Virus record (IMG/VR): IMGVR_UViG_3300028591_000082
Source: a virus
Lineage: Duplodnaviria > Caudoviricetes
Length of the DNA stretch: 64,000 nucleotides
Direction: 5' to 3' (one strand)
Shown here: piece after piece, positions 2,081 through 59,860 of the stretch
How the letters are laid out: each line of letters opens with the position of its first letter
Position numbering within the stretch: the stretch's first letter is position 1
Made by a program: the position numbers and the translations under genes
Notes under the pieces: generated by a model
What the model was told of the DNA's origin: nothing
The model's database searches: none
Seen by the model: the letters and a program-made list of their open reading frames with translations, nothing else

Positions 2081-2410
2081 TTAAATCTTAATATTATTTC
2101 TTGAAGATTGTTCAAGCTCTTTTAATATTTTAAAAGAACTTTTTCTTATATCGTCGCAATTATTCATTGGAAAATAACAATCTGCATAACAATTAACAAG
2201 TTTTATAATTAAAGTACATACAGGAATATCACATCTTCCTGCAAAGATTTCTCCTCTACCTGTTAACATAGTTTTTAATACACAATCAGAGCAAGGAATA
2301 TAATCATGTTCTAATTTTAATTCTCTACTTCTAGGAACTCTACTTATATATTTATTATATGATAAATATGATAATTGTCTTTTTGCTTCTTTCTTTTGTT
2401 CTGAATTCAT
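2081..2410 (-). CDS. Cys-rich small protein with C-terminal tag (RNNIKI)
   Basis: CxxC plus further Cys; tag ends in an ATT codon plus TAA with no overlapping downstream gene. Confidence 0.75.
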   Translation of the reverse strand: MNSEQKKEAKRQLSYLSYNKYISRVPRSRELKLEHDYIPCSDCVLKTMLTGRGEIFAGRCDIPVCTLIIKLVNCYADCYFPMNNCDDIRKSSFKILKELEQSSRNNIKI

Positions 2411-3045
2411 TTTACATTCCTGAAACTAGATTTCTTATCAAAACCGTGATTTTCTATTTTCTCATTGTTTGAAAGACCTTTACTCTCTGTCTTTTCGCTA
2501 TTCTCTTGCAAAGCAGTAAAATATTCTACAAAGGCAAAGTAAATTTCTTCAGCAGAAGTGCAAGAAGGAATACCACTTTCTTTAAGAATTATAATTCCTT
2601 TTTTGTTTCCATAAGGAGCATCTTCTATTACTTTTGAGTAATAATATTTATTAAGAACACATTTTATTATTTCTTCATTTCCCCTTCCATTGTTTTTCCA
2701 GCCAAGCTTCCAAAAATCAACATAAAGTTTTTCAAGAGTAAATTCAGATAAATGATCGTAATCCTTCCATTTATGTATAAGTTCTGTATTAAAATCAATT
2801 ACTTCTCTATACATAGAATCTGATTTTACAACATTTACTTTATAAAGAAATCTTGTATAACCAATAGATAAAAGCAAAACGCAATATTTATTGCCATTAT
2901 CATATGAACGATCGTCTATGCTAAAGTGAGCACACCATTCTTGTCTGGAAATAGATATAGAACCCCTTCTATCAAATGTATAAAAATCGGGGTATATTCC
3001 TTGAAGATAATCGTAAAAGTCTTTGTTTTTATCTATTATTCTCAT
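2407..3045 (-). CDS. Hypothetical phage protein, probably leaderless (starts MRIIDKNKDFYD)
   Basis: ATG lies 6 nt past the -10 at 3052-3057; no SD. Confidence 0.7.
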   Translation of the reverse strand: MRIIDKNKDFYDYLQGIYPDFYTFDRRGSISISRQEWCAHFSIDDRSYDNGNKYCVLLLSIGYTRFLYKVNVVKSDSMYREVIDFNTELIHKWKDYDHLSEFTLEKLYVDFWKLGWKNNGRGNEEIIKCVLNKYYYSKVIEDAPYGNKKGIIILKESGIPSCTSAEEIYFAFVEYFTALQENSEKTESKGLSNNEKIENHGFDKKSSFRNVK

Positions 3046-3095
3046 ATGTGTATTATACAACTAAAAAATTATTTAAGCATGGTGCAGATACTTTG

Positions 3096-3365
3096 TTATT
3101 TTAAATCTAATATATCGTCAAAACTATATATAAAATAATATTTTACTTCTTCTAATATGTCTTTACAACGAATGTAACCAGATCCATCTTTTTGCTTAAT
3201 GTTCATTCCAGGATACATTCTGTTTAACAATTTAATGCAAGAATCAATTCTTAATATTTTCTTTAAAAATCTACAAGGACAATCAATACAATCAATATCA
3301 TCTTCATGTAATTCTGACAATTCATTTACTTTATTTACAATTAATGCACTAAAACTTCTTTCCAT
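3096..3365 (-). CDS. Cys-rich small protein (CIDCPC...C...C) lacking the C-terminal tag
   Basis: Same Cys spacing as the array proteins; ends DILDLK. Confidence 0.6.
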   Translation of the reverse strand: MERSFSALIVNKVNELSELHEDDIDCIDCPCRFLKKILRIDSCIKLLNRMYPGMNIKQKDGSGYIRCKDILEEVKYYFIYSFDDILDLK

Positions 3366-3981
3366 ACTTTTCTTCACAATCAACCAAAGCAAATAAAAGT
3401 TCTTTTGATATATTTAGTTTATCAAGAAGTTCCAAATTCTTTGGAATTAAAAACATACAATCTTTATCAAAACCAACTATTTTAATATCTACTTTTTTAC
3501 CATTTAGTAAATCTATAAATTTTTGATTTCCTTCTTTTTTATTATACAAAATAAGATCGCTGCAAGTTCTAAATTCTTCGTTATTAAGAACTGTTTTGTC
3601 AAACTTCTCGATAAACAAATCTGAATTTATTACAAATGCATTATTAAACATTGAAACAAATAAATTTGCAGCCTTTGAGATCAATTTATCAAAATCTTCT
3701 GTATCGTCTGGAAATATAGTAATAAGTGGTTCTACAGGAATTGATACAATTTTTCCATTACCTATAGACTTAATCCAAGATTTAATACATCTTTTTTTGT
3801 GTGGATATTTTTCAAAGTCATAACCTTCGTCAAAATGAAATAATATGTATACCATTTCATTTTCTTTTGTACTTTCAATTACTTCTTTAATAGACCCACA
3901 GCTCATTTCACCACTTTCAGGATCAATTATTGTAACAATTAAAAAATCCCTTAAGTATTCTAAATCTTTATCACTTACCAT
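3349..3981 (-). CDS. Hypothetical protein
   Basis: ORF; start moved to MVSDKD to avoid overlap with the upstream gene. Confidence 0.65.
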   Translation of the reverse strand: MVSDKDLEYLRDFLIVTIIDPESGEMSCGSIKEVIESTKENEMVYILFHFDEGYDFEKYPHKKRCIKSWIKSIGNGKIVSIPVEPLITIFPDDTEDFDKLISKAANLFVSMFNNAFVINSDLFIEKFDKTVLNNEEFRTCSDLILYNKKEGNQKFIDLLNGKKVDIKIVGFDKDCMFLIPKNLELLDKLNISKELLFALVDCEEKYGKKF

Positions 3982-6356: not shown

Positions 6357-6713
6357 TTATATTTTTATATTACGATCTGTTATTTTTATTTTTACAGGAA
6401 ATTTTTCAAAAAAAAGATCACATAACAAAGAATCATCTTCAACAAATTCTTCTATAAAATCTCGAAGAGTTCCACTCCAACCAATAAGTTTACATAAAGC
6501 ATAAGCTCTTTGAGCACAACAAGATATTGTACTTCTACTTGCATAACTAAAAAATTTTTCAAATTTTTTATTTTCGTGAAGAATAGCACGATTATCTGGT
6601 TCAAAAGGGCAATGATATCCATAGCAATTGTCAGTAAAACCTTCCCCTTCGCCAATTTCTATTTTATTTTTGATATATTTTAAGTTTTCTGATAATTGTT
6701 TTTCTAATTTCAT
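6357..6713 (-). CDS. Cys-rich tagged protein (ends DRNIKI)
   Basis: CxxxxCP...CC; C-terminal tag. Confidence 0.75.
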   Translation of the reverse strand: MKLEKQLSENLKYIKNKIEIGEGEGFTDNCYGYHCPFEPDNRAILHENKKFEKFFSYASRSTISCCAQRAYALCKLIGWSGTLRDFIEEFVEDDSLLCDLFFEKFPVKIKITDRNIKI

Positions 6714-7015
6714 ATTTTCGTATTTACCCTTGTTTTAACTTCTATATCATAAAACCATCTTGAAAACCTATCGCACCAAACTCCAGAACCTGGTTCGTGA
6801 ATTTCCTTTGGCAAATTTTCAATTTTAAAATAATCTAATATTTTTTCACAGTTAACTCCACAATCAAAAGCATTACTTATACCAATTTCTTTTCTGTAAA
6901 GACTCATTGATGTTTTTATTGGACAGTAATCACATTGTCCAAATCTTTTAGGATTTATTGTTTCTTTTATTTTATAAAAAATTTTTAATTTATTATATGG
7001 CATTCTTATTTTCAT
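6710..7015 (-). CDS. Cys-rich tagged protein (RVNTKI), paralogue of 7012-7326
   Basis: Shared FG.C..CPI, CG.NC..LDYF.I, GSG..C..FSRWF.D. Confidence 0.8.
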   Translation of the reverse strand: MKIRMPYNKLKIFYKIKETINPKRFGQCDYCPIKTSMSLYRKEIGISNAFDCGVNCEKILDYFKIENLPKEIHEPGSGVWCDRFSRWFYDIEVKTRVNTKI

Positions 7016-7326
7016 ATTTTTATATTATACCTTGATACAATTTTTAAATCACAAAACCATCTTGAGAATTCTTCACATGAAACACCATTGCCACTACCAT
7101 ATTTATGAATATGTTCAGGCAAAAGCCATCTAATGTTAAAATAATCTAATAATCTATCACAATTAAATCCACATCTTCTATTGTCAGATGTATTTGTCTC
7201 ATTTGGAAATTCTTCTTTTGCTATCGCTATAGGGCAACTGCAGCAATCACCAAAATAATCTGGATCACAAAAATTTACTATTTTATTAAATATTTTTACT
7301 TTTTTTGAAGTAAGTTTTATTTTCAT
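7012..7326 (-). CDS. Cys-rich tagged protein (RYNIKI)
   Basis: Paralogy to 6710-7015; ATGA overlap. Confidence 0.8.
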   Translation of the reverse strand: MKIKLTSKKVKIFNKIVNFCDPDYFGDCCSCPIAIAKEEFPNETNTSDNRRCGFNCDRLLDYFNIRWLLPEHIHKYGSGNGVSCEEFSRWFCDLKIVSRYNIKI

Positions 7327-7327
7327 T

Positions 7328-7534
7328 TTATTTCCCAAAAATCAAAGAAAGAACAAAAACCAATCCATATACAGATGTTTCAAGAACAAGAGCGTTGAAT
7401 GTCTTTTTGCATATATTCTTTCTTTCAAATGTATGTTCTGTATCGTGTTTTACTTTTGATTTTGATTGTACAAAGTTGTAAATAAGAGAAGCTGATTTTC
7501 CCATAAAAAGTACAAATGAAATATCTTTTATCAT
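7328..7534 (-). CDS. Small membrane protein
   Basis: Two hydrophobic segments; GGAGG SD; box A promoter upstream. Confidence 0.6.
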   Translation of the reverse strand: MIKDISFVLFMGKSASLIYNFVQSKSKVKHDTEHTFERKNICKKTFNALVLETSVYGLVFVLSLIFGK

Positions 7535-7594: not shown

Positions 7595-7903
7595 TTATAT
7601 TTTAATTTCTCTATTTGTTGTGATCATTGTTAAAATTTTTTTTGCTGAATCTAAGTTTCTACCACAAGTATCATTGTTTAAATAAAAATTGGTACGTAAT
7701 GATATAACATAATTAGTTAATGTTTGACAATTAGTATAATAATTTCCAGTTTTCTCTGTTCTTAATGGACATTGATCGCATGTACGACCACAAACATTAA
7801 TATACATATCTATAAATTCTATCATTTTTTTTGGACTAATCTTATATCTTTTTGAATAAAAATTTCTTATTCTAAGTGCTTCAATATTTTTGAATCTTTT
7901 CAT
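7595..7903 (-). CDS. Cys-rich tagged protein (REIKI)
   Basis: CDQCPL...C...C; tag followed by TAA. Confidence 0.75.
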   Translation of the reverse strand: MKRFKNIEALRIRNFYSKRYKISPKKMIEFIDMYINVCGRTCDQCPLRTEKTGNYYTNCQTLTNYVISLRTNFYLNNDTCGRNLDSAKKILTMITTNREIKI

Positions 7904-8235
7904 ATTTTTATATTCCTACTCTTAAGTCCAATGTTATATACCCAATTTTGAAAATTATCACAATCAACGCTGCCACGAATATATTTACACTGATATAGAT
8001 CCAAGTCAAAATAATGCATTATATCTATTGCTATATCAGAACAAGAATCAAAAATATCTACTTCTAATCTTATATTATTTATAAGATTATTTTCTGTGGC
8101 AATACCATATCTTCCTCTTAGTATACATACTGGGCATCCTTTGCAACTTTCATTTATTGTTTCTTTTTGCTCTTGTGGAGTTTTTATTCGAAACATATAT
8201 TTTTTTAACTCTTTAAATTCTTTAATATGTTTCAT
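7900..8235 (-). CDS. Cys-rich tagged protein (RNIKI)
   Basis: CKGCPVC...C...C. Confidence 0.75.
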   Translation of the reverse strand: MKHIKEFKELKKYMFRIKTPQEQKETINESCKGCPVCILRGRYGIATENNLINNIRLEVDIFDSCSDIAIDIMHYFDLDLYQCKYIRGSVDCDNFQNWVYNIGLKSRNIKI

Positions 8236-8489
8236 ATATTTATACTCCTACTTTTATTTAAAATATATTTTATTGCTTTTATATGGCTTCTACATCCATC
8301 TCTTCCTTCGTTAATTTTTCTCCAAATATCAAAACCACCTACTGTTTCTATATATCTTCCACAAGTAAGATGTAAACGATTATTTCTATCTGCACAAGCA
8401 CACATAATACATCCAGGATAACCTTTATTTCTAGAATGTTTGACGTACTCAACGGCTTTTTTAAAAGCAATTTTATCAATATTTTTCAT
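8232..8489 (-). CDS. Cys-rich tagged protein (RSINI)
   Basis: CIMCAC..NN...TC...GG...GC..HI.AIKY; related to 11566 and 11835. Confidence 0.75.
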   Translation of the reverse strand: MKNIDKIAFKKAVEYVKHSRNKGYPGCIMCACADRNNRLHLTCGRYIETVGGFDIWRKINEGRDGCRSHIKAIKYILNKSRSINI

Positions 8490-8755
8490 ATTTTTATATG
8501 CCTACCAAAATTGTTTACTATTTTGCAAATTATTGCTCTTCCTTCAGCACAACTTGTAAATTTTTTATCACCACCCATTGCTTTGTATATATCTGCACAA
8601 GAACCATGCATAGCATATTTCTCTCTTGGGAAGTCTGTTTTAAGTCTTTGCCATACACATTCTGCACAAGCAGTAACCTTTTCGTTTACTGTAACATTTT
8701 TATCGTATTTTATTATCCATTTGATATCTTTTAACAATTCTTTGTTTAAAGGCAT
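8486..8755 (-). CDS. Cys-rich tagged protein (RHIKI)
   Basis: CAEC...C...C. Confidence 0.75.
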   Translation of the reverse strand: MPLNKELLKDIKWIIKYDKNVTVNEKVTACAECVWQRLKTDFPREKYAMHGSCADIYKAMGGDKKFTSCAEGRAIICKIVNNFGRHIKI

Positions 8756-8783: not shown

Positions 8784-9074
8784 TCATATTTTTATATCAC
8801 GTTTTGAATTATTGTCTAAAGCAAATTTTATTGCTACTATATGCTCGTCGCAACTAAGTTCATCTTCTTCAAAGCCAAGTCTTTCCCAAATATCTTCTCC
8901 TAAAACTTTTTCTATGCGTTCATAACAATATAAATTATCAGAATTATTTTGATGAGAGCTTGGGCAATTTTCACATTCGTCACAATCACTACTTTCATAA
9001 TCCAAAAATGTTATATAATGTAAAGTATCTTTAAATATTATTTCAGTTTGCTTATTTAGTTTTATTTTTTTCAT
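8784..9074 (-). CDS. Cys-rich tagged protein (RDIKI), paralogue of 9071-9328
   Basis: CENCP...C..IE.V.GE...EDE..C....AIK. Confidence 0.75.
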   Translation of the reverse strand: MKKIKLNKQTEIIFKDTLHYITFLDYESSDCDECENCPSSHQNNSDNLYCYERIEKVLGEDIWERLGFEEDELSCDEHIVAIKFALDNNSKRDIKI

Positions 9075-9328
9075 ATTTTGGCTGGTTTCCTATAATTTTC
9101 CAAAGTATATTTTATTGCTTTTAATCTATCACTACAGTTGTGCTCGTCTTCTCCTATTCCTATTTTTCTAAGAGATTCTCCAATTACTTCTTCAATAAAA
9201 ACACAACAGCCAAGATGAAGTGGATTATACTCAAAACTACAAGGACATTCAGTACAATTCCTTTCACCATATTTATGATATTCTAATGTTTTCTTAAAAA
9301 GTTCTATATAAGTTGAATTTAGTCTCAT
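9071..9328 (-). CDS. Cys-rich tagged protein (RKPAKI)
   Basis: CTECPC...CC...C. Confidence 0.75.
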   Translation of the reverse strand: MRLNSTYIELFKKTLEYHKYGERNCTECPCSFEYNPLHLGCCVFIEEVIGESLRKIGIGEDEHNCSDRLKAIKYTLENYRKPAKI

Positions 9329-9570
9329 ATTTTTGCTGGCTTCCTATGATTATAATCTTTTAAAGCTTTTTTAACTGATTCTAATCTTCTTTTGCATGAA
9401 TAAAAACCGAAACGATCTATATATTGTGGAATCACTCTAGTAAGAAAATCCATGCATCCTTCCCCACTTGGATTATTTGAATAACTAAGTGAACATATAC
9501 TACAGTCATGGCCTTGGTTTTCTTTTAATGCATTTTTTAAAGTTCTTATTTCTTCTTTGCTTAGTTTCAT
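9325..9570 (-). CDS. Cys-rich tagged protein (RKPAKI)
   Basis: CSIC...NN...GC...C. Confidence 0.75.
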   Translation of the reverse strand: MKLSKEEIRTLKNALKENQGHDCSICSLSYSNNPSGEGCMDFLTRVIPQYIDRFGFYSCKRRLESVKKALKDYNHRKPAKI

Positions 9571-9821
9571 ATTTTAGTTGCTCTTATTTTACTTTTTGTT
9601 TTATATATTATATCAGAAAAGCGTCTGACATCATCACAATTAAATAAATTAAACATTCGTTTTCCAGGAACAAATTTTGCAAACACTTCATTAAAATAAT
9701 CAATACAACCAATACCAATATCATTATTAGAAGAACTCATTGGGCATTCTTCACAAGCTGTAAAATCATTTATATATTTCATTTCAGAAAGTATTTTCAT
9801 TAATTTTCTGCTTGGTCTCAT
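9567..9821 (-). CDS. Cys-rich tagged protein (RATKI)
   Basis: CEECPM..NN...GC...C. Confidence 0.75.
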   Translation of the reverse strand: MRPSRKLMKILSEMKYINDFTACEECPMSSSNNDIGIGCIDYFNEVFAKFVPGKRMFNLFNCDDVRRFSDIIYKTKSKIRATKI

Positions 9822-10096
9822 ACTTTAATGTTCCTATATGATTTTTTTAATAATATATCTGTATAATTCCTAATTGTTAGACAATAACTTTCGTATTTTT
9901 TACTATTGTTAATAATCCATTGTTCAGAATTACTGCAAATTTCATGTAGATAAGTAAGACAAGAAATATTAAATCCACTATTAGTGGCATACAAAGGACA
10001 ATTGTCACAACCAATGTGCGTTCTTTTACAATCAAGAGAAAATCCTTTTGACAATATATTTTTTCTTAATGCATTTAATTTACTAATATCAATCAT
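9818..10096 (-). CDS. Cys-rich tagged protein (RNIKV)
   Basis: CDNCPL...C...C. Confidence 0.75.
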   Translation of the reverse strand: MIDISKLNALRKNILSKGFSLDCKRTHIGCDNCPLYATNSGFNISCLTYLHEICSNSEQWIINNSKKYESYCLTIRNYTDILLKKSYRNIKV

Positions 10097-10374
10097 ATTT
10101 TAATAATCCTAAAATTGGTAGGTAGCTGCTCCAAAAACCAACAATAAAACCTACTGCAATTAACGGAATTATCTATAATTGCTCTTGGCGGGTAATCCAT
10201 TTTTAATATGTCAAGCATTCTGTAAACTTCCATAGCACAACTTCCATTGCATATTTTTTTCCCAGTAATTTTTTTATAGATTTCCTTTGGACAAATATGA
10301 CATTCGTTGGCAATATCATTAGAGCGTGATATCATTGTTTCTTTTATTTTAAGAGCCAAGGTTGAATTTTTCAT
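10093..10374 (-). CDS. Cys-rich tagged protein (RIIKI)
   Basis: CHICP...C...C; start at ATGA overlap with 10371-10670. Confidence 0.75.
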   Translation of the reverse strand: MKNSTLALKIKETMISRSNDIANECHICPKEIYKKITGKKICNGSCAMEVYRMLDILKMDYPPRAIIDNSVNCSRFYCWFLEQLPTNFRIIKI

Positions 10375-10670
10375 GCTGGTATTTCCATTTCCTGATATTC
10401 CTTTCCAGCTTTCCAAGATTGATAGGTAGATACTTTCATTACACCTGAAGTATTATCAGTTAAAAAGCCTTCGCTGTTGTATTCACGATTATTGTCTTTG
10501 TGATATTCTTCATTAATACCGTCAAAGCCATCAAAGAAAGCGGCATTGATGTATGTCATATCTATTTCATCAAAGTTTTGAAACTCTTCGGAGTGTTCAC
10601 CATTATAATAATAGTCGTACCAGGCATCTCCCTTGTTATTATAAGCCTTCTTCATATCAGGAAACAACAT
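10371..10670 (-). CDS. Acidic hypothetical protein
   Basis: GGAGGTG SD; ORF. Confidence 0.7.
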   Translation of the reverse strand: MLFPDMKKAYNNKGDAWYDYYYNGEHSEEFQNFDEIDMTYINAAFFDGFDGINEEYHKDNNREYNSEGFLTDNTSGVMKVSTYQSWKAGKEYQEMEIPA

Positions 10671-11021: not shown

Positions 11022-11279
11022 CTATATCTTCACAGATTTTCTTTTTGACTTAAAATCCTCACATATTTGATAACAAGCATCTCTTACGTCACAGCAGCTA
11101 AACAAATGACCCGATGGTAAATATCCCTCAATTATTTCCTTACCAATCATATCTCGCAGGACAGTTAAGCAAGTTCTAAAATAAATTCTATCATTGAGTG
11201 GACACGTTTCACAATGCAAATCAGGAACTGTAGTTGTCATTTTTAACATTTTAATTATATCGGGTCTTATTTTTTTCAT
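11022..11279 (-). CDS. Cys-rich tagged protein (RKSVKI)
   Basis: CETCPL...C...CC; tag followed by TAG. Confidence 0.75.
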   Translation of the reverse strand: MKKIRPDIIKMLKMTTTVPDLHCETCPLNDRIYFRTCLTVLRDMIGKEIIEGYLPSGHLFSCCDVRDACYQICEDFKSKRKSVKI

Positions 11280-11569
11280 ATTTTTGTATTTCTTGAGAAT
11301 TTGTAATTTTTAACAAAATCATATACTTTTTGGTGTATAGTTGGGCAATGAGTGGTCATATCAATACCAAATATTCTCTGTATTTCACTGCATGGCTTTT
11401 CCCCACCAAGACAACTAATCATTGTATCTTTTTTCTTTCCAATACTTTCAAAGTATTTATGCAGTATACAAGTTTCTCGCATCAAAACCCCATAACCAGT
11501 TCTTCCAATATCTTCATTACAATTCTTTTGTATGCATTTGAATTTAGCTATCACATCATCTTTTTTCAT
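11276..11569 (-). CDS. Cys-rich tagged protein (RNTKI), CILHK subfamily
   Basis: CILHK...C.GG..C...C..IH shared with 12092 and 12382. Confidence 0.8.
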   Translation of the reverse strand: MKKDDVIAKFKCIQKNCNEDIGRTGYGVLMRETCILHKYFESIGKKKDTMISCLGGEKPCSEIQRIFGIDMTTHCPTIHQKVYDFVKNYKFSRNTKI

Positions 11570-11838
11570 ATTTTACATCCAAGCCTGTATTTAGAATGAT
11601 TAACCATATATTTAATTGCAATTACCTGATCTCTACAACCAGTACAGTCTCCCCCAGATTCTTCATATATTTTATCTCCTCCAATCTTCATTATAAATAA
11701 ATAGCATCCAACTTTTGCTCTATTATTTTTTTTAGACATAGGACATTTTTCACATATATGCCCTTCACTTTGATGCTCTTCTACATATTTTAAAGCACTT
11801 TTAAGCGTCATTAAATCTTTTTTACCAATCTTTTTCAT
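11566..11838 (-). CDS. Cys-rich tagged protein (RLGCKI)
   Basis: CEKCPMS..NNR...C..FI...GG; paralogue of 11835. Confidence 0.8.
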   Translation of the reverse strand: MKKIGKKDLMTLKSALKYVEEHQSEGHICEKCPMSKKNNRAKVGCYLFIMKIGGDKIYEESGGDCTGCRDQVIAIKYMVNHSKYRLGCKI

Positions 11839-12095
11839 ATCTTAATACCTCTAGTAGAGTTAGAATATTTAATCATATATTCAATTGCCATATGCTGAGA
11901 ATTATACCCCTTCATTGCCGCTTCATCGCGTATATTCTTTCCTCCCAAGAACTTTATAAATTCTGGGCAAGTCAATCCCACTCTATTATTAGTACTGCTC
12001 ATAGGACAAGTTCTACAATCAGCAAACCCCTTTCCCTCCCAAAGTCTTTTAGCAGTTTTCATAGTAGCCAGATCACTTTTACTAATCCTTTTCAT
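11835..12095 (-). CDS. Cys-rich tagged protein (RGIKI)
   Basis: CRTCPMS..NNR...C. Confidence 0.8.
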   Translation of the reverse strand: MKRISKSDLATMKTAKRLWEGKGFADCRTCPMSSTNNRVGLTCPEFIKFLGGKNIRDEAAMKGYNSQHMAIEYMIKYSNSTRGIKI

Positions 12096-12385
12096 ATTTT
12101 AATACCCCTTAAATGGCAAATTCTATATATTTCTTTATGTATATCAGCACACATAATATATCTATTAAGTCCAAACTCTTCTACTATTTTACCACATATT
12201 TTCCCACCAAGACATTGACTTCCGTGATATTCTTGTTGTAAAGCTTGTTCTAAGAATTTATGCAATATACAAGATTTTCGTATAATAAACCCATTATCAT
12301 CTATTTTAATATTAGGAGAGCATTTTATGCTTTTAAGTTTATTAAACATCTGCCTATAGTTAAGTATTTGTTGATACCCATTCAT
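12092..12385 (-). CDS. Cys-rich tagged protein (RGIKI), CILHK subfamily
   Basis: CILHK...CLGGKIC...MCADIHK. Confidence 0.8.
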   Translation of the reverse strand: MNGYQQILNYRQMFNKLKSIKCSPNIKIDDNGFIIRKSCILHKFLEQALQQEYHGSQCLGGKICGKIVEEFGLNRYIMCADIHKEIYRICHLRGIKI

Positions 12386-12663
12386 ATCTTAGTCTCCCTA
12401 ATACCTCTTTTTATAATATTATATACATTCTTATGTATATCAGCACACATATTAGTTGCTTTTAATCCAAGCATTTTCTGTATGCCTTCACATATATATC
12501 CTCCAACACAATTAGCTCCATAAAACCTTAATGGTGGGTTTACACATAATAAGTACTTATGCAGTATACAGTTATGCCGCCAGTTAACGCCACAAGTATT
12601 AAGATTAGGATTACACTCTTTTCTTACTTTACAAAGTAAGCGTATCATTTCATTATTAGCCAT
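12382..12663 (-). CDS. Cys-rich tagged protein (RETKI), CILHK subfamily
   Basis: CILHK...CVGGYIC...MCADIHK. Confidence 0.8.
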   Translation of the reverse strand: MANNEMIRLLCKVRKECNPNLNTCGVNWRHNCILHKYLLCVNPPLRFYGANCVGGYICEGIQKMLGLKATNMCADIHKNVYNIIKRGIRETKI

Positions 12664-12670: not shown

Positions 12671-12919
12671 TTATATCCTACAAAATCTATTAATTTTTAT
12701 ATTCATAAATGCATCATAAAACTCTATACAACCACATCCACCACTATACTTTATACCAAGCCTTTTACATAACTGTTCCCGGTGTTCTGCACACCCAATG
12801 CCCTTAAGTCTTCTTATAGATAAATTACTATAAATGGTAATAGGACAGCACCTACAAGCACCAGGAGCATTGTTCTTAGCTAATTCTGCTTGTATTTTCC
12901 TTATCATTCTCTTATCCAT
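12671..12919 (-). CDS. Cys-rich tagged protein (RFCRI)
   Basis: CRCCPI...C...CGC. Confidence 0.75.
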   Translation of the reverse strand: MDKRMIRKIQAELAKNNAPGACRCCPITIYSNLSIRRLKGIGCAEHREQLCKRLGIKYSGGCGCIEFYDAFMNIKINRFCRI

Positions 12920-13376: not shown

Positions 13377-13730
13377 ATGCCTAGAATAAGTGATAGATAT
13401 AGAGTAATAGAAAGCGATTGGACTCCATATGTAACTGTAACACATAATGATACTACAGCTGATGCAACTACAGCTACTAGTACTGGTACATATTGGACAT
13501 TTAATGATGATGTTAATGATAATCGTGTAACAGTTAATTTACATGATTATTGGTATGAGGTACCTAATTCAAATGGATACATTACTTTGGATCCAAGTCT
13601 AAGCTTTAATAGTAATTCATTATGGTCTGATAATAGATCATATGTTAGTTGGGATCCAGGATTAAGTTTTGAAGAAGCTTACAAAAGATGGTTGAAAAGA
13701 CGGAATAAGAAGAGAGTTATAAGGATATAG
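13377..13730 (+). CDS. Cys-free hypothetical protein with C-terminal tag (KRVIRI)
   Basis: Thr/Trp/Asn-rich ORF directly after the promoter. Confidence 0.7.
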   Translation: MPRISDRYRVIESDWTPYVTVTHNDTTADATTATSTGTYWTFNDDVNDNRVTVNLHDYWYEVPNSNGYITLDPSLSFNSNSLWSDNRSYVSWDPGLSFEEAYKRWLKRRNKKRVIRI

Positions 13731-13732: not shown

Positions 13733-13912
13733 ATGGAAGAAGAACTTTTAGAATCGGTTAGACGATTACTAGATAGTGTTTATAGGGATAATATCAGCCG
13801 CAGAATATTTAGAGAATACTCTATGGAAGTGTCGGGAGATACTATTTATTATGTTAGACCATTCTTTGGAAAGAATATAAAACACAAGTGCAGGAAGAAT
13901 TGCAAGATATAA
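13733..13912 (+). CDS. 59-aa tagged protein (MEEELLESV...RKNCKI), below ORF-track cutoff
   Basis: Manual translation; AAGGA SD in the end of the previous gene; followed by a hairpin and T-run. Confidence 0.6.
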   Translation: MEEELLESVRRLLDSVYRDNISRRIFREYSMEVSGDTIYYVRPFFGKNIKHKCRKNCKI

Positions 13913-14048
13913 TCGAATATTTGCGCCAATTAGGCTTTGCGGCCACTGTGGCTTTTTTATTGACAGTGTAATGATAGGAACCCCGTTTCGGGGCAAAAAT
14001 AAAAGCCCCTCGGGCGAACCCAAGAGGCTTCTAGCAATTTTTTTATGA

Positions 14049-14432: not shown

Positions 14433-14444
14433 AATTTTGTCCTA

Positions 14445-14512
14445 CCTAAGTAAACTTAGGATTTTGATTAAATTTGTTGTTCTTACGAACTTTTTTGAGG
14501 AGCAACGCTCCC
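14445..14512 (-). promoter_or_regulatory. Conserved 5' leader of the KOW-like paralogues (also 16276-16327 and 20923-20975)
   Basis: Identical CCTAAG-TTTA-CTTAGG hairpin abutting the SD in all three; 5' hairpin GGAGC-GTT-GCTCC vs GGGTC-GTT-GACCC covaries. Confidence 0.75.
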
Positions 14513-14564
14513 TTACTCTTATATTATACACCGCAAATCCTAACAGAACAGGGTGCATATTTTT

Positions 14565-14960: not shown

Positions 14961-15011
14961 ACTCTTATATTATATCACGAAACTTTTAATTCAGCAGGGT
15001 GCAGAATTTTT

Positions 15012-15105: not shown

Positions 15106-15154
15106 TACTAATATTATACACCGTAAACCTGAAGTCAGCAGGGTGCATAATTTT

Positions 15155-48053: not shown

Positions 48054-48236
48054 TTATATTTTTATTATTCTTTTTGGTTGTATGTCTACATTTAATTTAA
48101 TTTTTTTATAAATTTCATCAAGACACTTTACAATTATTGCTTCAACTTCTGAATGCAATATTCTTTCTTGATATTGCAAAAAATGTTCTTGAATATCTAT
48201 TCCATTTCTTGCAAGTTCTTCAAAATCAGGTGGCAT
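48054..48236 (-). CDS. 60-aa tagged protein (KRIIKI)
   Basis: Sits between DUF3310 and dnaE; tag plus TAA. Confidence 0.6.
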   Translation of the reverse strand: MPPDFEELARNGIDIQEHFLQYQERILHSEVEAIIVKCLDEIYKKIKLNVDIQPKRIIKI

Positions 48237-48492: not shown

Positions 48493-48560
48493 AAAAATTC
48501 TCCTTACTTTTTCTACAATTTTATTATATCATGAGGCAATATAAAAATCAAGTTAATCAT

Positions 48561-48920
48561 ATGATAGATAAGAAAAAAATAAATACTCTCACATTAAGAA
48601 GATTCAATGAAATGTATCACAACGAAAATGTAAAATTTGGTGGTTGGGATAAATATCATATTCCAAGTGAAAAAAAATATTTCTTATCTTTGTATTGCCC
48701 ATTTGCTAATTTTAAAGATCCATTTGGTGTTTATTGGCATTCTGGAAAATTTCATGTACCAAAATATAAAGACCTTTCTTATAGACAGTCATCAAGACTT
48801 GAAGATATATGCAATTCTTTAAATTCAAATCAAAGTTTGATAAGAGCTTGCAGAGAAGTAGATAGACTTATAGATTTAAAAGCTACAAGAGCATTTACTG
48901 GAAAATATTTTAATTATTAA
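48561..48920 (+). CDS. Hypothetical protein
   Basis: ORF convergent with 48917-49420; AAGTTAA just upstream. Confidence 0.55.
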   Translation: MIDKKKINTLTLRRFNEMYHNENVKFGGWDKYHIPSEKKYFLSLYCPFANFKDPFGVYWHSGKFHVPKYKDLSYRQSSRLEDICNSLNSNQSLIRACREVDRLIDLKATRAFTGKYFNY

Positions 48921-50952: not shown

Positions 50953-51324
50953 TTATTCATTTATTTCATAAACACATTTTATTGAATCTGCTTGTGTTAA
51001 TGCATAGAAAACATCATCATTTGGTCCAATAAATTGCAAATCATAGTTATTAGCTATAACAATATCACCAACCTTAAATCCGTATTTGTCTCCTTCTACT
51101 AATGGTCCAATAGAATGAACATACATATCAACTTTTGTTTTATCTCCAGAAGATTTTGTTACTTCCTGACCATTTGTGGAATTTTCCTGACCTGGTATAA
51201 TAATTCCGCCAGGTGTCTTAATCAAATTTGATGTTTTCTCGACAATCCTTACACACTTTAAAACAACATATTTTCCAGTTGCTTCAATTTTGTCGATTCC
51301 TCCATTATCATCTACTGTTGCCAT
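50953..51324 (-). CDS. groES: GroES-like co-chaperonin
   Basis: G.YVVL, mobile loop KTPGGIIIPG, V.SIGP, KVGD.V. Confidence 0.75.
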   Translation of the reverse strand: MATVDDNGGIDKIEATGKYVVLKCVRIVEKTSNLIKTPGGIIIPGQENSTNGQEVTKSSGDKTKVDMYVHSIGPLVEGDKYGFKVGDIVIANNYDLQFIGPNDDVFYALTQADSIKCVYEINE

Positions 51325-52043
51325 TATTTACTCCTTTTCTTTGTTTCTTTTTTTGGGCTATTAATAATTTTCTGAATTTCAGCGTTAATTATTTTTTCAT
51401 ATTTACTTGTTACTTCTTGAACTGCTTTCTGCTTTTCATTATCTTCTTTTGTATATGCTTCAAGTCTCTTTATTGTTTCTTCAGCATTAAACCAGAAATC
51501 TTTTCCATTGAGACAAGCTTCAATTTCTTCATCTGTCATAAAATCTTTGTAAAGCTCTCTAAATTGAGGTTCTGAAGATTTTTCATCAAAATGATATTGT
51601 GCTTTTATTTCATGCCATTTTCCAGCCAAGACTTCACTCCAAGAATGAACCATAACAGTTGCATGTGGAGAAACTTCCCACTCATTTGCTGCAAGCATTA
51701 TATCTGTAGCAGCTGAGGCGCAAATTCCTTCAATACAAGCCTTTACATTTGCATCTGTTTTTAATAATGCATCATGTAGGTTCATAGAAACAAATGTATT
51801 TCCACCATAACAATTTATATGAATTACGATTTCATCTCCAGTCCTACAACTTTCAACAGCCCTTAAAAAATCAATATAATCATCAATGCTTTCAATTACT
51901 TCTGTAAGATAGAAATCAATTTTTCTACCCTGATCTGTATCGACTACTTTCAAAGGATCGTTTAAAACAGCGACCTTTTCCATAGGTTGCAAATTTCCGC
52001 CTTCAAATCTTCTCATTACTTCTCCTTTTTTACATTTCTTCAA
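51324..52043 (-). CDS. clpP: ClpP-like protease
   Basis: IHINCYGG, EGICASAA (Ser), MVH (His), GKD.W..AEE (Asp). Confidence 0.85.
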   Translation of the reverse strand: MKKCKKGEVMRRFEGGNLQPMEKVAVLNDPLKVVDTDQGRKIDFYLTEVIESIDDYIDFLRAVESCRTGDEIVIHINCYGGNTFVSMNLHDALLKTDANVKACIEGICASAATDIMLAANEWEVSPHATVMVHSWSEVLAGKWHEIKAQYHFDEKSSEPQFRELYKDFMTDEEIEACLNGKDFWFNAEETIKRLEAYTKEDNEKQKAVQEVTSKYEKIINAEIQKIINSPKKETKKRSK

Positions 52044-52653
52044 ATAATAGTATATTATCGTTTACTTTGTCAAGATAAGCAGATTTACTTTTCTTTTTGG
52101 CATGTACATGCCCTTCGTTATATGCTATTATTTTTTTATTAGTTCCATAAACCCCATATTTTTCATTATATTCATAAATCCAACAAGAAACAATAACATT
52201 TATTCTTATATCATACAAATCTTCTGGTTTATAATCAGTACCATTTTTCCAATTATAATCAGTCAATCCAATTTCAGATACTTGCCCAACACCTCTACCA
52301 AATTCAGCTCCACAATATGAGTTTGCATACATCTTAAATTTACTTTCTTGCTTGTATATAGCAAGCATTATTAAAGGTTCTTCTGAATTTTCTTCAAGAG
52401 TATCTAATAATATTTTTATTTGTTGCTTATTTAGATTTCCATATGTTTCGATGAACTTTTCCATTTTTAATCTTATTAATTCATCTTCAGAAACTATTTC
52501 TTCTTGTATTATTTGAGGTTCTTCTATTATTTCATTTGTAACAGATTGCTCTTGCTTTTGTTCTATTTTTATTTCTATAACAAGAGTAATCTGTACAGCA
52601 ATTAATATAATTGCTGCCGCAATAAGCGACAGCAACTTCGTATTTCTACGCAT
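52030..52653 (-). CDS. Lytic transglycosylase (SLT domain) with signal anchor
   Basis: QES.F, G.G.GQV, LYD...N, AYN.G. Confidence 0.85.
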   Translation of the reverse strand: MRRNTKLLSLIAAAIILIAVQITLVIEIKIEQKQEQSVTNEIIEEPQIIQEEIVSEDELIRLKMEKFIETYGNLNKQQIKILLDTLEENSEEPLIMLAIYKQESKFKMYANSYCGAEFGRGVGQVSEIGLTDYNWKNGTDYKPEDLYDIRINVIVSCWIYEYNEKYGVYGTNKKIIAYNEGHVHAKKKSKSAYLDKVNDNILLFEEM

Positions 52654-55354: not shown

Positions 55355-56473
55355 TTAAAGAGAAAGAATTGCAATACTCTCTTTAATTGCTCCAACATCT
55401 GTTTCATTATTCTTTGAGCTTGATTCAATTGCTGTAAGAAGAGCATTTATTTTTGAAACAAGTTTTTCATCTTCAATCTTGTCAGCTGCTGTTTCAAGTG
55501 CTTTCTTAAGCTTTTCTACGTCACTATCTTTAGCTGCAAGCTTTTCATCTTCTTTTTTCTCTTTATCGTCTTCACCTTCGAAATCGTCATCGCTCAAAGC
55601 TTCTTCGATAATAGATTTCTTGTCTGAAAGATATTCACTTTCTTCGATAATTTTATTAATTTCATCTGCAAGTTCTTTTCTTTCTGCAACAAGTTTTGGT
55701 TCTCCAAGAACACTCATTCCAACAAATTCTTTGAATTCGCTTTCATTAAGACCCATAATCATTTCATTATTTCCAACATAGTCTTCAATAACTGTAGGAT
55801 CTTCTGTTTCTTTATATACCTTGATTGCTTCAAGAAGTGCCTTCTTTGCTTCTGAATCTTTTGAGAATTTTGCAACTTTATCTGAAATATCAGAATAAAT
55901 TACTCTTTCTTCATCTTCATCAAGAACTGCTACTTTTACTGGGTGTACAAAATCAATATAGTGAATTGTAGAAACTGGTCTTTCTTCAAGAAGTGCAGAA
56001 TATTCTTCAAAAAGTGATGTTTCTTTAAGTTCATCAAGTTCTTCATTAATTCCGCAAAGTGGTGAATAATCAATTACATCACTAATATTCTTTGAAGCAA
56101 GTGCTTCAACTATTGAATCTTGAAGTTCATTATCATCTTTTTCGAATTCTTCAGAAAGAGCTTCGCCAATTCTTTCTGTATCAACTACTTCTTCATTAAA
56201 GTAATCACTAACTGCTTCTCTAAGTGAATTTGTTTCCTTCTCTAATTCAATATTTTCAAAATTTTCAAAAACAAAAGTATTGCCATCAAAACTGTAATCA
56301 GCAGTATAAATATTACCATTTGTATGGTCTGCAAGCAACACTTTATCCTCAAACATTTCCATAAGAACGGCGTTTGAGCTTTCATTTATAATTTTTCTTG
56401 CAAGCTTTTCAACCATTCTATTGCTATGTGCTATAGTATCTGATAATTTGCTAATTGTCATAGTAATCTCCAT
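55355..56473 (-). CDS. Acidic helical protein, possible prohead core/scaffold
   Basis: Very E-rich, downstream of portal; function is inference. Confidence 0.55.
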   Translation of the reverse strand: MEITMTISKLSDTIAHSNRMVEKLARKIINESSNAVLMEMFEDKVLLADHTNGNIYTADYSFDGNTFVFENFENIELEKETNSLREAVSDYFNEEVVDTERIGEALSEEFEKDDNELQDSIVEALASKNISDVIDYSPLCGINEELDELKETSLFEEYSALLEERPVSTIHYIDFVHPVKVAVLDEDEERVIYSDISDKVAKFSKDSEAKKALLEAIKVYKETEDPTVIEDYVGNNEMIMGLNESEFKEFVGMSVLGEPKLVAERKELADEINKIIEESEYLSDKKSIIEEALSDDDFEGEDDKEKKEDEKLAAKDSDVEKLKKALETAADKIEDEKLVSKINALLTAIESSSKNNETDVGAIKESIAILSL

Positions 56474-56496: not shown

Positions 56497-56907
56497 TTAT
56501 AGTTTATATATAGTTCTAGACAATTCAAGACTTCTGCGCTTAATTACGTTAAATTCTTTTTTAAGTATTTGAATTTTATCTATAACAAATGGGTTACTAT
56601 ATTCATCTTTTAACGATATATTTCTTACATAGACTTTATTTTTTTCTATTTTTTCAACAACAAGGACATCCCCTCTTGTGATATCCTTAAATACTTTTAA
56701 TAAAGGTGATTTTTCTTTTATAAGAATCTTTTTCCATTGTTGACTAGAAGCACTAGGAACAGTCATTCTTATTCCATCAATAATATAATTATTTTTTTTC
56801 AAAACAAATTGGGTTTTGTAAGTCTCAAGCATATCACCTGGACTTACAATTTCAATTTCATTATTAATTTTTTTTAATATGTCATTAATGGTTTTTTCAT
56901 ATTTCAT
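56497..56907 (-). CDS. Hypothetical protein
   Basis: ATGA overlap with portal. Confidence 0.7.
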   Translation of the reverse strand: MKYEKTINDILKKINNEIEIVSPGDMLETYKTQFVLKKNNYIIDGIRMTVPSASSQQWKKILIKEKSPLLKVFKDITRGDVLVVEKIEKNKVYVRNISLKDEYSNPFVIDKIQILKKEFNVIKRRSLELSRTIYKL

Positions 56908-58907
56908 TTTAAGGTCTTTGTTTCCTCGCTTTCTGTAAGTACTTCTTCTGCCTTTTTACCTTTTCCTTTCTGTTTAACTCTAGAATAAACACTAAATGAA
57001 TGAGAATCATATTTTAAACCACCAAGCTCATTTTCATAAAGTAATGAAATTGCTTCATCATTTGTAGTTTTTACTTTTTTAACACCCATTGCTTTCTGCA
57101 TTTCTGTAAGAATTTCGGCATTAAAATCTTCTTCTCTATTTACTTCTTTTAGTATCTTTTGCTCTTCGTTATATTCGTCCAAAGCCTTAAATAATTTACC
57201 GATATCTTGTTTATGTTCAAGAAGAACATCTTTTCCAAACATTTTTACGATAAGTTCCTGATTAATTACATTTTCTGAACCATCTATTGGTTGCTGACCA
57301 GGTTGTTGTGCATTATTATCTGGAGTTAGAGATGGCTGCATTCCCATATCTGGAGCTCCACCAATACCACCAGTCATTCCACCACCTATGCCACCACCAG
57401 GCATTCCACCAGCTGCTTGAGCTGCTGCATTATTTTCAACACTCTTAAAGAATGACAAATCATTTATTTCTTTGTTTGTCATTTTCATTACGTATTTTAG
57501 AATAAATTTACTTGGGAATAATTGTGTAGACATCATAGCAGAAATAAGAGACATTTTTTGATTAAGATATTCAATATCCATTATTTCCTTGATATTTGAA
57601 GGAGATGTTAATTCTATTTTAAAGTTTTTAAGATCATCTTTCTTCTTTTTCTTAAAGAAAAGCTCAATTGCTGCAAGCTTTATAAGTCCTTCTTCTATAT
57701 AATACTGAATTCTTTCAGCAAATCTTGCGAACTTAATATCCTGCATAGCAAGAGAACCACGTCCACCAGCACCAGCACCATTTCCATCTGAAGAACCTAA
57801 GTACTCTGGCGGAATATTCATTGTCCAAAGAATTTGATCTTTAAAGTATTTAATATCATCTATATTATTAAGAGCGTTTCCAGCTTGAAGTGTATCAATT
57901 ACTGTTGCTGCTCCATTATCCTTAACTGGAAGGAAAATATCTTGAGTAATTGCAAGAGCAGCTGCTTTTCTATCAATATTTCCTCTTTCGTCAAGAACCT
58001 GGCTTGTTCTGTAAGAATCTCTAATCTTTTGAACATATCTAAGCGCTTCATTTTTAGGAAGATTCCCTACTGGAATCTTAAATACTCTTCTTTCTGGAAC
58101 ACGAGCCATCCTATAAATAACCATTCCGTCTTCAAGAAGCTGTAATCTATTATATACTTTTATACCTGATTTTAAAAGCGAACCACCATAAGGATAAAAA
58201 TCTTTATCTGCAATTCTAAAGTGAATAATTTGCCAAGGTTCAAGTTTGTAAACTACATTTTTATTTTCTGTATCATTTGTGAGATCTGTATTTACATAAT
58301 TAAAAGTGTTTTGTTCATCTGAAGTTTCTGTAGAGTATGTATAAAATGCAAGTTTACCATTCTTTTCAATTCTGTTTACTTTTGTAGGATCAAGATAACG
58401 AATTCTTGCAACCATTGTTGGCTTATCATAACTATCTGGAATTACTTCATAGAAGTTATCACCAAGTTTACAAGTTTCATATACTATAGACCATAATTCT
58501 TTATTAAAATTAAGTCTATTATAAAATAAATCTTCAAGAATTTCTTTTATTTCATCATCATCAGAATTAATTTTTACTGTATGACCTTCTTGGTTTTTCT
58601 GAGAGCAATCATCAGCAATAATTTGCAAACCTCTATGAATAAAATTACAATTACTCATATCCTGGAATGTCTGATAATATTCTTTTCTATTTATTTTTCC
58701 TTCTTTTGAGAGAAATGTATTATTGTTTTGAAAACTAAAATCAACATTTATTAACGAATCTGAATCAAAGTTTTCGAGTTCTTTTACTTCTTTTTTGCTT
58801 GCTTCTACTTTAAGTGTTTCAGGAAGTGCATCTATTGGATTCATTTTTCTCTGAATCTCTTCAGCCTTCCTGAAATTTATATTTACATCCTTTCCGTTAA
58901 CAATCAT
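56904..58907 (-). CDS. Portal protein, T4 gp20-like
   Basis: LED.MVIYR..R.PERRVF.I.VGNLP, D.FLP, IDTL..G, DI.YF, DIKF..F. Confidence 0.92.
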   Translation of the reverse strand: MIVNGKDVNINFRKAEEIQRKMNPIDALPETLKVEASKKEVKELENFDSDSLINVDFSFQNNNTFLSKEGKINRKEYYQTFQDMSNCNFIHRGLQIIADDCSQKNQEGHTVKINSDDDEIKEILEDLFYNRLNFNKELWSIVYETCKLGDNFYEVIPDSYDKPTMVARIRYLDPTKVNRIEKNGKLAFYTYSTETSDEQNTFNYVNTDLTNDTENKNVVYKLEPWQIIHFRIADKDFYPYGGSLLKSGIKVYNRLQLLEDGMVIYRMARVPERRVFKIPVGNLPKNEALRYVQKIRDSYRTSQVLDERGNIDRKAAALAITQDIFLPVKDNGAATVIDTLQAGNALNNIDDIKYFKDQILWTMNIPPEYLGSSDGNGAGAGGRGSLAMQDIKFARFAERIQYYIEEGLIKLAAIELFFKKKKKDDLKNFKIELTSPSNIKEIMDIEYLNQKMSLISAMMSTQLFPSKFILKYVMKMTNKEINDLSFFKSVENNAAAQAAGGMPGGGIGGGMTGGIGGAPDMGMQPSLTPDNNAQQPGQQPIDGSENVINQELIVKMFGKDVLLEHKQDIGKLFKALDEYNEEQKILKEVNREEDFNAEILTEMQKAMGVKKVKTTNDEAISLLYENELGGLKYDSHSFSVYSRVKQKGKGKKAEEVLTESEETKTLK

Positions 58908-58942
58908 TAAAAAATCTCCAGGTCTACTATGTTAACTTTTTT

Positions 58943-59425
58943 TTAGATTCTAACGTTTCTTTTCGGAAGCTTATTTAATGTAGATAAAGTTGATAATCTA
59001 TTTGCAACACTTTCATATGATAAATACATATCATCACCATTGTTTCCAATAAATCTAAAATATTTTACAGGCATTTCTTTTTCAATTAAGTGAATTGTAT
59101 TAAAATCAGACTTAATAAATAATTCAGTTATGTTATCTTCAAGTGCATCTGCAAGAGCTATAAACCTAAATTTTAAATAACCTTCTAAATTATTTATATA
59201 TTCATTATACATACCACCAGTAGAGTTTAACAGATCATTTTGATATTCTGTCAATTTTTCCAGTATTCTTGGCTCCCAAATTGTAATAAATTTACCAAGG
59301 AATCTGGCAAATTCACTATTATTAATAGCAATAAATGAAATATCATCTTCAAATTCTATTCGAAAATCATTTACTCTGCCATAATCTACATCAAGTTTTA
59401 TTTCTTTTATAAATATTCTTCTCAT
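58943..59425 (-). CDS. Tagged protein between portal and terminase (RNVRI)
   Basis: No Cys motif; terminal Ile is encoded by ATC. Confidence 0.65.
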   Translation of the reverse strand: MRRIFIKEIKLDVDYGRVNDFRIEFEDDISFIAINNSEFARFLGKFITIWEPRILEKLTEYQNDLLNSTGGMYNEYINNLEGYLKFRFIALADALEDNITELFIKSDFNTIHLIEKEMPVKYFRFIGNNGDDMYLSYESVANRLSTLSTLNKLPKRNVRI

Positions 59426-59464
59426 AATAAAAAATTTTAAACATTGTTTAAAAAAAGTCAAGTA

Positions 59465-59860
59465 TTATATCTTAACAATACATCTACTAGCAACTGTTCT
59501 TTTTTTTGCTTTTACAAGTGCACTTACACAAATATTTGAAAAAACCTGTTTAAAATATATAGTTCTTCCATTATATGTATTAATTATAAAATCTCTTGAT
59601 GCTAATTCTTCAAGAATAAATTGACCAAAAAGACTAACTATAGTCATTCCAATGCTATATGATACTCTATTTGAAATATACATTGGATTGTTATTAATCT
59701 TTTCTATAAATTTTCTAATTATATTTTCAAAAGTTGGAGATATTATTATTAATTTTTTTGTTCTTGGTGTAAATTCAATATTTACATCACCATTTGTTCT
59801 TTCGATACCACTAATAAAAAATTTTCCAACATTAAAAAAATCAGCTTCAAGCATAAACAT
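59465..59860 (-). CDS. Tagged protein between portal and terminase (RCIVKI), leaderless
   Basis: TTGATT-17-TATAAT-6-ATG. Confidence 0.65.
   Translation of the reverse strand: MFMLEADFFNVGKFFISGIERTNGDVNIEFTPRTKKLIIISPTFENIIRKFIEKINNNPMYISNRVSYSIGMTIVSLFGQFILEELASRDFIINTYNGRTIYFKQVFSNICVSALVKAKKRTVASRCIVKI

Follow-up and report, generated by a model that had tools for sequence, protein, structure and literature searches.

Why should so many small proteins encoded in one stretch of phage DNA end in the same few residues? The stretch is a 64,000-nucleotide (nt) sequence from IMG/VR record IMGVR_UViG_3300028591_000082 (hereafter the window), and an original prediction made from its letters had proposed that about 37 of its small proteins, encoded between positions 2081 and 59860, share a C-terminal tag that plugs dozens of variable effectors into one hub. 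There are single known cases in which a short terminal peptide directs many proteins to one machine: degrons, the T4 capsid-targeting sequence, clamp-binding tails and the cargo peptides of encapsulins. In this 64-kb stretch of a large uncultured phage, one such tail is found on a third of the genes, and substitution patterns indicate that the peptide itself is under selection. We interpret this tail as a short linear recognition peptide, probably an address label.

The window has 29% G+C and carries nearly all of its genes on the minus strand; its source is, as read from these genes, an uncultured T4-like phage. A 667-amino-acid (aa) protein at 56904-58907 (-) has ~30% identity to T4-type portal proteins, and a replication module at 30 to 56 kb includes a DnaB-like helicase, a primase, an exonuclease, RusA, a methyltransferase, a poly(ADP-ribose) glycohydrolase (PARG), a DNA polymerase, UvsX and gp32. 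A search of deposited phages found no near match to the window. Our gene set consists of 102 genes called by codon usage, with a GC-rich island left out (~103 when 41092-41322, described below, is counted). Tail counts, gene context and scans for a tail reader all refer to the 64-kb window rather than to the whole phage genome.

All C-termini quoted in the original prediction are present in the sequence. The pattern R...I (Arg at position -5, Ile at -1) ends 24 of the 102 called genes, compared with 0.4 expected from internal pentamers (P about 1e-35); the narrower R..[KR]I ends 17 genes against 0.04 expected, and 41 genes end in Ile against 8.8. A tail-like R...I end is found in 3 of 177 open reading frames (ORFs) in other frames, and with an internal frequency of 0.0004 for R..[KR]I the motif is essentially limited to gene ends. 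Using a log-odds matrix of the last six residues on all 429 ORFs of at least 35 aa, we found 36 that score at or above our cut-off of 7.2, close to the number first proposed. Thirty-five of these were already in the gene set. The remaining one, the only ORF among the 312 outside the gene set to reach the cut-off, is 41092-41322, which has strong coding potential and a conserved ortholog; it is a real gene that the initial list of carriers had missed.

Across the carriers, Arg mostly occupies position -5 (otherwise -6), Lys or Arg position -2 in about two thirds, and Ile the last position in nearly all, with Ile, Val, Thr, Ala, Cys or Leu (mostly the first three) at -3. The consensus is R-x-[I/V/T]-[K/R/H/N]-I-COOH, five residues long. 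As a control we used a distant relative of similar composition (207,680 bases, 36.5% G+C, 88% complete, polymerase 40% identical), in which 0 of 245 called genes, 96 of them small, have a tail-type end (Fisher P 6e-22 compared with the window) and 5.7% end in Ile. These counts confirm that the tail is real and far beyond chance, and the genomes compared show it restricted to one phage clade. On a related 2.4-kb contig (L004), a Cys-poor 109-aa ORF at 414-743 (+) ends in RDRVCKL, which is tail-like with Leu as the last residue; it adjoins a fragment at 1-390 (+) that resembles methionyl-tRNA formyltransferase.

The proteins that carry the tail are less diverse than originally described. Their bodies had been called barely alignable, yet 30 carriers belong to one alignable family with four invariant or nearly invariant Cys residues (C-x2-C ... 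C ... C) in an 80-127 aa three-helix protein. A profile of this Cys4 family recovers 32 window proteins at E values below 1e-4, two of which are off-pattern: 3096-3392 has no tail, and 26671-26997 has the variant KRILPL. The N-termini of the carriers are not conserved. The family has no match in Pfam or PHROG, and when 1.8 billion representative proteins were searched exhaustively with the profile, only 22 Cys4 clusters were returned, every one of them tailed. In the records searched of more distant relatives, the 88%-complete one included, the family does not occur; scans of viral contigs (queries 13377, 27880 and 5517) and of metagenomes (query 8784) found no further array-bearing relatives. 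An AlphaFold2 (AF2) model of the member at 9071-9328, built from 43 sequences, is a three-helix domain with a mean predicted local distance difference test score (pLDDT) of 86.5 and a predicted template modelling score of 0.75. In this model, the last seven residues are coil and the final block falls to pLDDT 57. Fold searches with it against PDB and BFVD returned nothing at E 0.001 or better. By these comparisons, the Cys4 three-helix family is new, and its four Cys residues are predicted to bind metal.

As first proposed, the tail also occurs on proteins without the Cys motif. With a tail matrix trained on the family alone, 5 of 70 non-family genes have ends in the top 0.1% of their own internal 6-mers, compared with 0.07 expected (P 1e-8); with 41092 included the count is 6 of 71 (P 1e-10), and leaving out both 41092 and the doubtful 13733 still gives P 1e-8. 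These carriers show no similarity to the Cys4 family profile (E above 0.7), and their tails follow a tight consensus, [K/Y/T]-R-x-[I/V]-[K/R]-I. Two of them had been cited as carriers on the plus strand. The first, 13377-13730 (+), is a 117-aa protein without Cys that ends in KRVIRI (tail p 1.6e-4) and has its own extended -10 promoter at 13362. The second, 13733-13912 (+), would encode 59 aa ending in RKNCKI (tail score 12.8), but its coding potential is poor (coding score -0.9), which makes it a doubtful gene. On the minus strand, 41092-41322 encodes a Cys-free 76-aa protein ending in YRIIRI through the codons CGA and ATC (tail score 9.0, coding score 28). Carriers among core genes had also been claimed, and three fit well: 42396-42689 (-), 97 aa, tail TRLIKI, with a 35% identical ortholog on related contig L005 that ends in KRTVKI; 48054-48236 (-), 60 aa with tail KRIIKI, directly upstream of the gene for the DNA polymerase; and 58943-59461 (-), ~160 aa with a start probably at 59425, which lies upstream of the portal gene, ends in KRNVRI with Ile encoded by ATC, and has a 39% identical ortholog on contig L001. 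The fourth, 59465-59860 (-), is by alignment a 131-aa paralog of 58943 that ends in KKRTVASRCIVKI and fits less well, with Arg at -6; its L001 ortholog ends in RGRVKV.

By eye, 48054 and 13377 resemble the module formed by the last Cys, helix 3 and tail of the family. We dropped cryptic homology of this kind after two tests. Against the non-family carriers, the best empirical p obtained with a helix-3 profile that left out the tail was 0.045, and a pairwise helix-3 test of these carriers, with 1,241 segments as the null, gave p 0.33-0.87. With both tests negative, the only unit common to family and non-family carriers is about six residues long. The gene 48054 is missing from related contig L006, and 42396 and its neighbor are both missing from L009; the non-family carriers are, on this comparative evidence, accessory insertions. 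The last 16 residues of the 58943 AF2 model are below pLDDT 50, and a fold search with this model gave only generic helical matches (Z 6.8 or below). The tail is thus predicted to be a free extension on two unrelated folds, that of a Cys4 member and that of 58943, as expected of a docking or recognition peptide.

Is the tail selected as a peptide, or might it be the by-product of a nucleotide signal? Across 26 orthologous pairs from eight related contigs, synonymous divergence (pS) is 0.29 for tail codons, as against 0.31 for gene bodies, so the tail DNA is under no extra constraint. The ratio of non-synonymous to synonymous divergence (pN/pS) is 0.46 in tails compared with 0.63 in bodies. Arg at -5 shows five synonymous and three non-synonymous changes and Ile at -1 shows two and one, compared with one and 12 at positions -4 and -3 together (Fisher P 0.014 against Arg at -5). 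All 17 diverged protein pairs retain the final Ile. At protein identities of only 39%, 35% and 29%, respectively, the orthologs of 58943, 42396 and 59465 still have the tail, with flanking DNA 85-87% identical. Furthermore, codons change beneath conserved residues: 58943 and its L001 ortholog both end in K-R-N-V-R-I via the synonymous changes AAA>AAG and AGA>CGA, the 42396 pair retains R, K and I with otherwise different codons, and the 41092 pair retains Y-R-x-I-R-I with CGA and ATC (the L005 ortholog ends in YRTIRI). Judging from these substitutions, the tail is under position-specific selection as a peptide, which bears out the original argument that selection acts on protein.

Some tails are nevertheless dual-coded with the downstream start. 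The next start is overlapped, as ATATGA, by 17 tails; 12 of these have AGG as their Arg codon, compared with 9% in the background (P 8e-10) and with 4 of 21 non-overlapped tails (Fisher P 0.003). The excess of AGG in overlapped tails indicates that this codon is evidently tuned to resemble a Shine-Dalgarno (SD) site, and a real nucleotide-level layer, dual-coded with a downstream translation signal, is evidently present. The last codon is ATA in 33 of 37 tails; ATT and ATC do occur, as first noted, but ATA dominates. It is also over-used in tails without overlap (17 of 21, P 0.003). A general preference for A-ending last codons was rejected as the cause of this ATA bias (30 observed, 29.9 expected). 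Programmed -1 frameshifting on A-AAA-A before the overlapped stop, which would fuse neighboring genes, was considered from the sequence alone; neither AAG tails nor non-overlapped tails fit it.

One could therefore propose that the tail is an in-frame reading of the next gene's SD, spacer and ATG-TGA signal, or reflects an effect on termination and re-initiation, copied by tandem duplication, with the tails at changed junctions as surviving relics. Besides the overlap, the AGG excess and the ATA bias, such an origin would suit the close same-strand gene found downstream of each carrier and the junction ATATAA-ACCCTGCCAGGAGTAAT-ATG that recurs in the block 24963-28784. We nonetheless consider it unlikely. 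Synonymous change in tail codons is not lowered, and the 42396 orthologs keep R, K and I despite their different codons. The ATGA overlap requires only that the last codon end in A and so does not force the tail: the 14 overlapped genes that lack it end in K, E, S, D or V, with an SD that may be in any frame. Between SD and ATG, 3-8 nt is usual; for the AGG of the tail, the distance to the ATG is 11-14 nt. In non-overlapped tails, Arg codons are near background frequencies, CGT included, and the downstream SD lies after the stop, as it does for the six carriers outside the family; the tail thus persists without gene overlap, as originally stated. Finally, ~65 other genes with equally close downstream neighbors, and the whole control genome, have no tail. 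Where genes overlap, tail codons would also be tuned for the next gene's start (AGG for Arg, ATA-TGA) in a layer placed on the peptide constraint rather than causing it. The case shows a peptide signal and a translational-coupling signal on common codons, and cautions against reading either layer alone.

Several other ends and junctions in the window are worth noting. ThyX (62216-63241, -) ends in RTKLKV, and a 217-aa protein (2407-3060, -) ends in FRNVK (AGG AAT GTA AAA TGA); both overlap the next start and are tail-like without the final Ile, showing, as we read them, what the coupling signal produces by itself. The conserved junction ATATAA-ACCCTGCCAGGAGTAAT(T/A)ATG occurs three or four times between family genes at 24963-27322. 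At 10997-10981, a related element, GCACCCTGC, folds into a hairpin of terminator type; this element also follows the stops of 7595 and 11022.

It is fairly probable, in our view, that one partner common to the carriers recognizes the tail as a peptide. That this partner is a Clp-type protease, the likeliest of the readers considered, is a tentative proposal made by analogy. The tail, on the flexible C-terminal extension of small, fast-evolving, probably early accessory proteins (the 32-copy Cys4 family and about six unrelated ORFans), would be read by a host Clp-type AAA+ protease, possibly together with the phage's own ClpP-fold subunit. It could then serve as a degron that limits the lifetime of early proteins, or as a tether that brings the targets of the variable bodies to the protease. 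Extended -10 promoters (TGnTATAAT) precede the big array (12984), 13377 (13362), and 48054 with the polymerase block (48531), which suggests early expression of the carrier arrays. In the most elaborate version, which we regard as very improbable, more than 30 fast-evolving Cys4 binding domains and effectors would be plugged by the tail into a Clp-type protease containing the phage ClpP-fold subunit, and each carrier would deliver a different host protein (e.g. a defense factor) for destruction or be destroyed on schedule. If true, this would be a phage-made set of interchangeable degradation adaptors.

The analogy draws on known signals that are recognized by ClpX. According to the passages on it in PMC3983244, which cites Flynn et al. 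2003, and in PMC12723719 and PMC5143411, the C-motif-2 consensus is R/H-x-K/R-K-hydrophobic-COOH, and MuA ends in NRRKKAI. In common with C-motif 2, the tail is short (five or six residues), transplantable and placed at the very C-terminus; Arg at -5, Lys at -2 and the hydrophobic final residue, which is Ile in MuA, also agree, and the type example, MuA, is likewise a phage protein. Matching at -5, -2 and -1 but not at -3, the tail would at best work like such a signal, and we do not file it as a member. We know of no comparable case in which one genome places a C-motif-2-type signal on some 37 proteins. The XB peptide of the adaptor SspB, RGGRPALRVVK-COOH, docks on the zinc-binding N-domain of ClpX (PMC3983244, PMC7226468). 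It too is a basic and hydrophobic C-terminal peptide on a flexible leash attached to a folded binding domain, and its R-V-V-K resembles R-x-[IV]-K; it tethers its carrier without destroying it, a mode of action that would fit a set of variable binding domains. Redirection of a Clp protease by a phage protein is known from SPO1 Gp53, which acts on ClpCP (PMC6873191). A literature search for a described phage system of the kind proposed here, or for phage ClpP in jumbo phages, found nothing.

The ClpP that the original prediction had pointed to at 51324 is indeed encoded there, as a divergent ClpP-fold serine protease (51324-52043, -) that matches phrog_1827 ("ATP-dependent protease", 7e-51) and PF00574 (9e-12). 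It is far from solved ClpPs (E 2e-4, with Ser and His aligned). Besides this window, the close relative L006 has the gene; the 88%-complete distant relative has neither the gene nor the Cys4 family. In a predicted complex of the protein encoded at 7900-8235 with the ClpX N-domain dimer of Treponema denticola, a Swiss-Prot stand-in, the score was 0.12 (mark 0.32), which speaks neither way on docking. As an observation on its neighborhood, the protease gene is the middle one of three adjacent genes (50953-52653, -), between one with a lytic transglycosylase (SLT) domain and one for a 123-aa protein with weak likeness to Cpn10/GroES (E 0.006).

A number of points weigh against this assignment to a Clp-type protease. 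The link between ClpP and the tail consists only of the analogy and a single presence/absence contrast, and the divergence of the 51324 protease is great enough that it may work alone or in head maturation instead of as a partner of ClpX. Scans of the window proteins with Pfam and PHROGs found no tail reader. The tail differs from C-motif 2 at -3, where it has Ile, Val, Thr, Ala or Cys in place of Lys or Arg, and degron specificity is known mainly for E. coli and may not hold for this host. Compared with SspB, it has one extra residue, the almost invariant Ile, and no long linker before it. Two carriers precede the portal gene, 59465 among them behind the T4-late-like TATAAATA, which is a better fit to a role in the head. 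The dual coding at overlapped stops and the ATA bias described above belong on the same side, as does the fact that 30 of 36 carriers are paralogs. Because most carriers descend within one family, most of the carrier count reflects descent, and we estimate about six independent acquisitions of the tail, not 37. Thus, of the single hub first imagined for dozens of variable effectors, the free and portable tail stands, but the independent cases are few and no hub was found in the window.

The evidence for a free, portable tail acting at the peptide level would fit equally well a common partner that is not a protease, such as a replisome or transcription complex of the phage or the host, an enzyme that modifies proteins after recognizing the tail, or the family's own domain, through tail-mediated oligomers. 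Placing 41092, 42396 and 48054 among replication genes, beside the exonuclease, PARG and polymerase genes, would make sense under such a reading, and the alternating basic and hydrophobic pattern suits beta-strand addition to many kinds of domain. Like class II PDZ ligands, the tail has hydrophobic residues at -3 and -1 and a free carboxylate; here, position -3 is mostly Ile, Val or Thr, and -1 is Ile. However, in the window proteins that we scanned, Pfam and PHROGs revealed no domain of a peptide-reading type (PDZ, TPR, clamp or other), and the DNA polymerase C-terminus does not resemble the tail, which makes a clamp-type motif unlikely; we rejected a clamp-binding motif on this ground. Overall, we view a non-protease partner as possible but doubtful.

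Loading into the capsid, also named in the original prediction, is in our estimate improbable. The tail would dock cargo on the scaffold, portal or shell, and small effectors, as a library, would thereby enter the head and be injected along with the DNA. Such a tail would parallel, at the C-terminus, the capsid-targeting sequence of T4 or the cargo-loading peptides of encapsulins. In T4, the internal proteins are diverse defense inhibitors with only the targeting peptide in common (PMC3012670), a close parallel to highly diverse small proteins of a T4-type phage that have in common only a short addressing peptide. Encapsulins, which have the HK97 fold of phage capsids, load cargo via C-terminal peptides that are short, transferable and dock on one receptor site (PMC8346489, PMC11866011); their receptor is the HK97-fold shell itself, and their likeness to the tail is one of description. 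The bodies of the carriers evolve fast, as in an arms race, and 58943 and 59465 are the first genes of the operon that contains the portal gene, the latter after TATAAATA. Against this, the T4 signal is N-terminal, ~10 residues long, cleaved by the head protease and active in late-assembled proheads (PMC3012670). Here the peptide is C-terminal, carrier N-termini are not conserved and most carriers lie in early-looking arrays. Both large arrays are behind sigma-70-like extended -10 promoters, beside replication rather than head genes, and this context lends the capsid proposal no support. No scaffold or major capsid gene was recognized in the window, and there is no precedent for packaging 37 different zinc-type domains.

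Finding the reader would, at one stroke, give a function to an orphan family and several ORFans. It would also let tails serve to group phage dark-matter genes by function, and would supply a compact portable tag for the host concerned.

The Cys4 genes all lie on the minus strand and, unless noted, were assigned by the family profile. The lowest-numbered, 2081-2410 (tail RNNIKI), has a profile hidden Markov model value of 1.3e-10 and a tail score of 12.3, and the tailless member at 3096-3392, which ends in DILDLK, has a value of 1.5e-7 and was outside the seed alignment. Then come 6357-6713 (DRNIKI; profile and tail score), in which Arg is CGT and the stop TAA without overlap; 6710-7015 (RVNTKI) and 7012-7338 (RYNIKI, start probably 7326), each with an ATATGA overlap; 7595-7903 (NREIKI), with stop TAA and a 45-nt gap; 7900-8235 (SRNIKI; ortholog P0001); 8232-8489 (SRSINI; ortholog end SRSIDI); 8486-8755 (GRHIKI); and 8784-9074 (KRDIKI, Arg as CGT). 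The tail RKPAKI ends both the member modeled above as three helices with a free tail (9071-9328) and its neighbor 9325-9570. These are followed by 9567-9821 (IRATKI), 9818-10096 (YRNIKV) and 10093-10416 (FRIIKI, start probably 10374). After 11022-11279 (RKSVKI, stop TAG, 62-nt gap) lie 11276-11569 (SRNTKI), 11566-11838 (RLGCKI), 11835-12095 (TRGIKI), 12092-12385 (LRGIKI), 12382-12663 (IRETKI) and 12671-12919 (NRFCRI), the last being the first gene after the extended -10 promoter at 12984.

Further members are found at 24963-25337 (KRNIHI, stop TAA), 25356-25736 (NRTIHI, Arg as CGT; the true start is probably an internal ATG as in P0011), 25670-26053 (RKTIHI) and 26387-26662 (SRVTII), the latter two with the next gene's SD after the stop, and 26063-26368 (FRCIDI). 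The variant KRILPL of 26671-26997 is kept in its ortholog. The remaining members are 27002-27322 (ARLINI, Ile as ATT), 27342-27611 (RGCIEI), 27608-27883 (KRVTKI) and 28425-28784 (ERSLCI).

Elsewhere in the window, the GC-richer island at 13900-24640 (38-41% compared with 29% G+C) has few convincing ORFs. ARAGORN found no tRNA in it, and Rfam gave one tRNA-like match at 14666-14738 (-). The island ORFs 14049-14432, 15842-16258 and 20484-20906 are three paralogs with a common C-terminal NF[GS]KVV motif. Another conserved C-terminus, GKYFNY, belongs to a 129-aa protein at 48531-48920 (+), with the same end kept in its L006 ortholog (2875-3261, -). Within the replication module, 40290-41156 (-) encodes a microbial-type PARG domain (PF10021, E 1.7e-33) that could counter ADP-ribosylating defenses. 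The 372-aa protein at 55355-56473 (-), two genes after the portal gene, ranks highest in the window for codon-usage score relative to its length. Pfam and PHROG gave no match to it, and it could be a structural or scaffold protein made in large amounts. In distant relatives (L009, 4095-8782; L010 and L011, 6500-10230), the polymerase match is ~1 kb longer than the protein requires and is split into several ORFs, which suggests an intein, intron or homing-endonuclease gene inserted inside the polymerase gene of all three.

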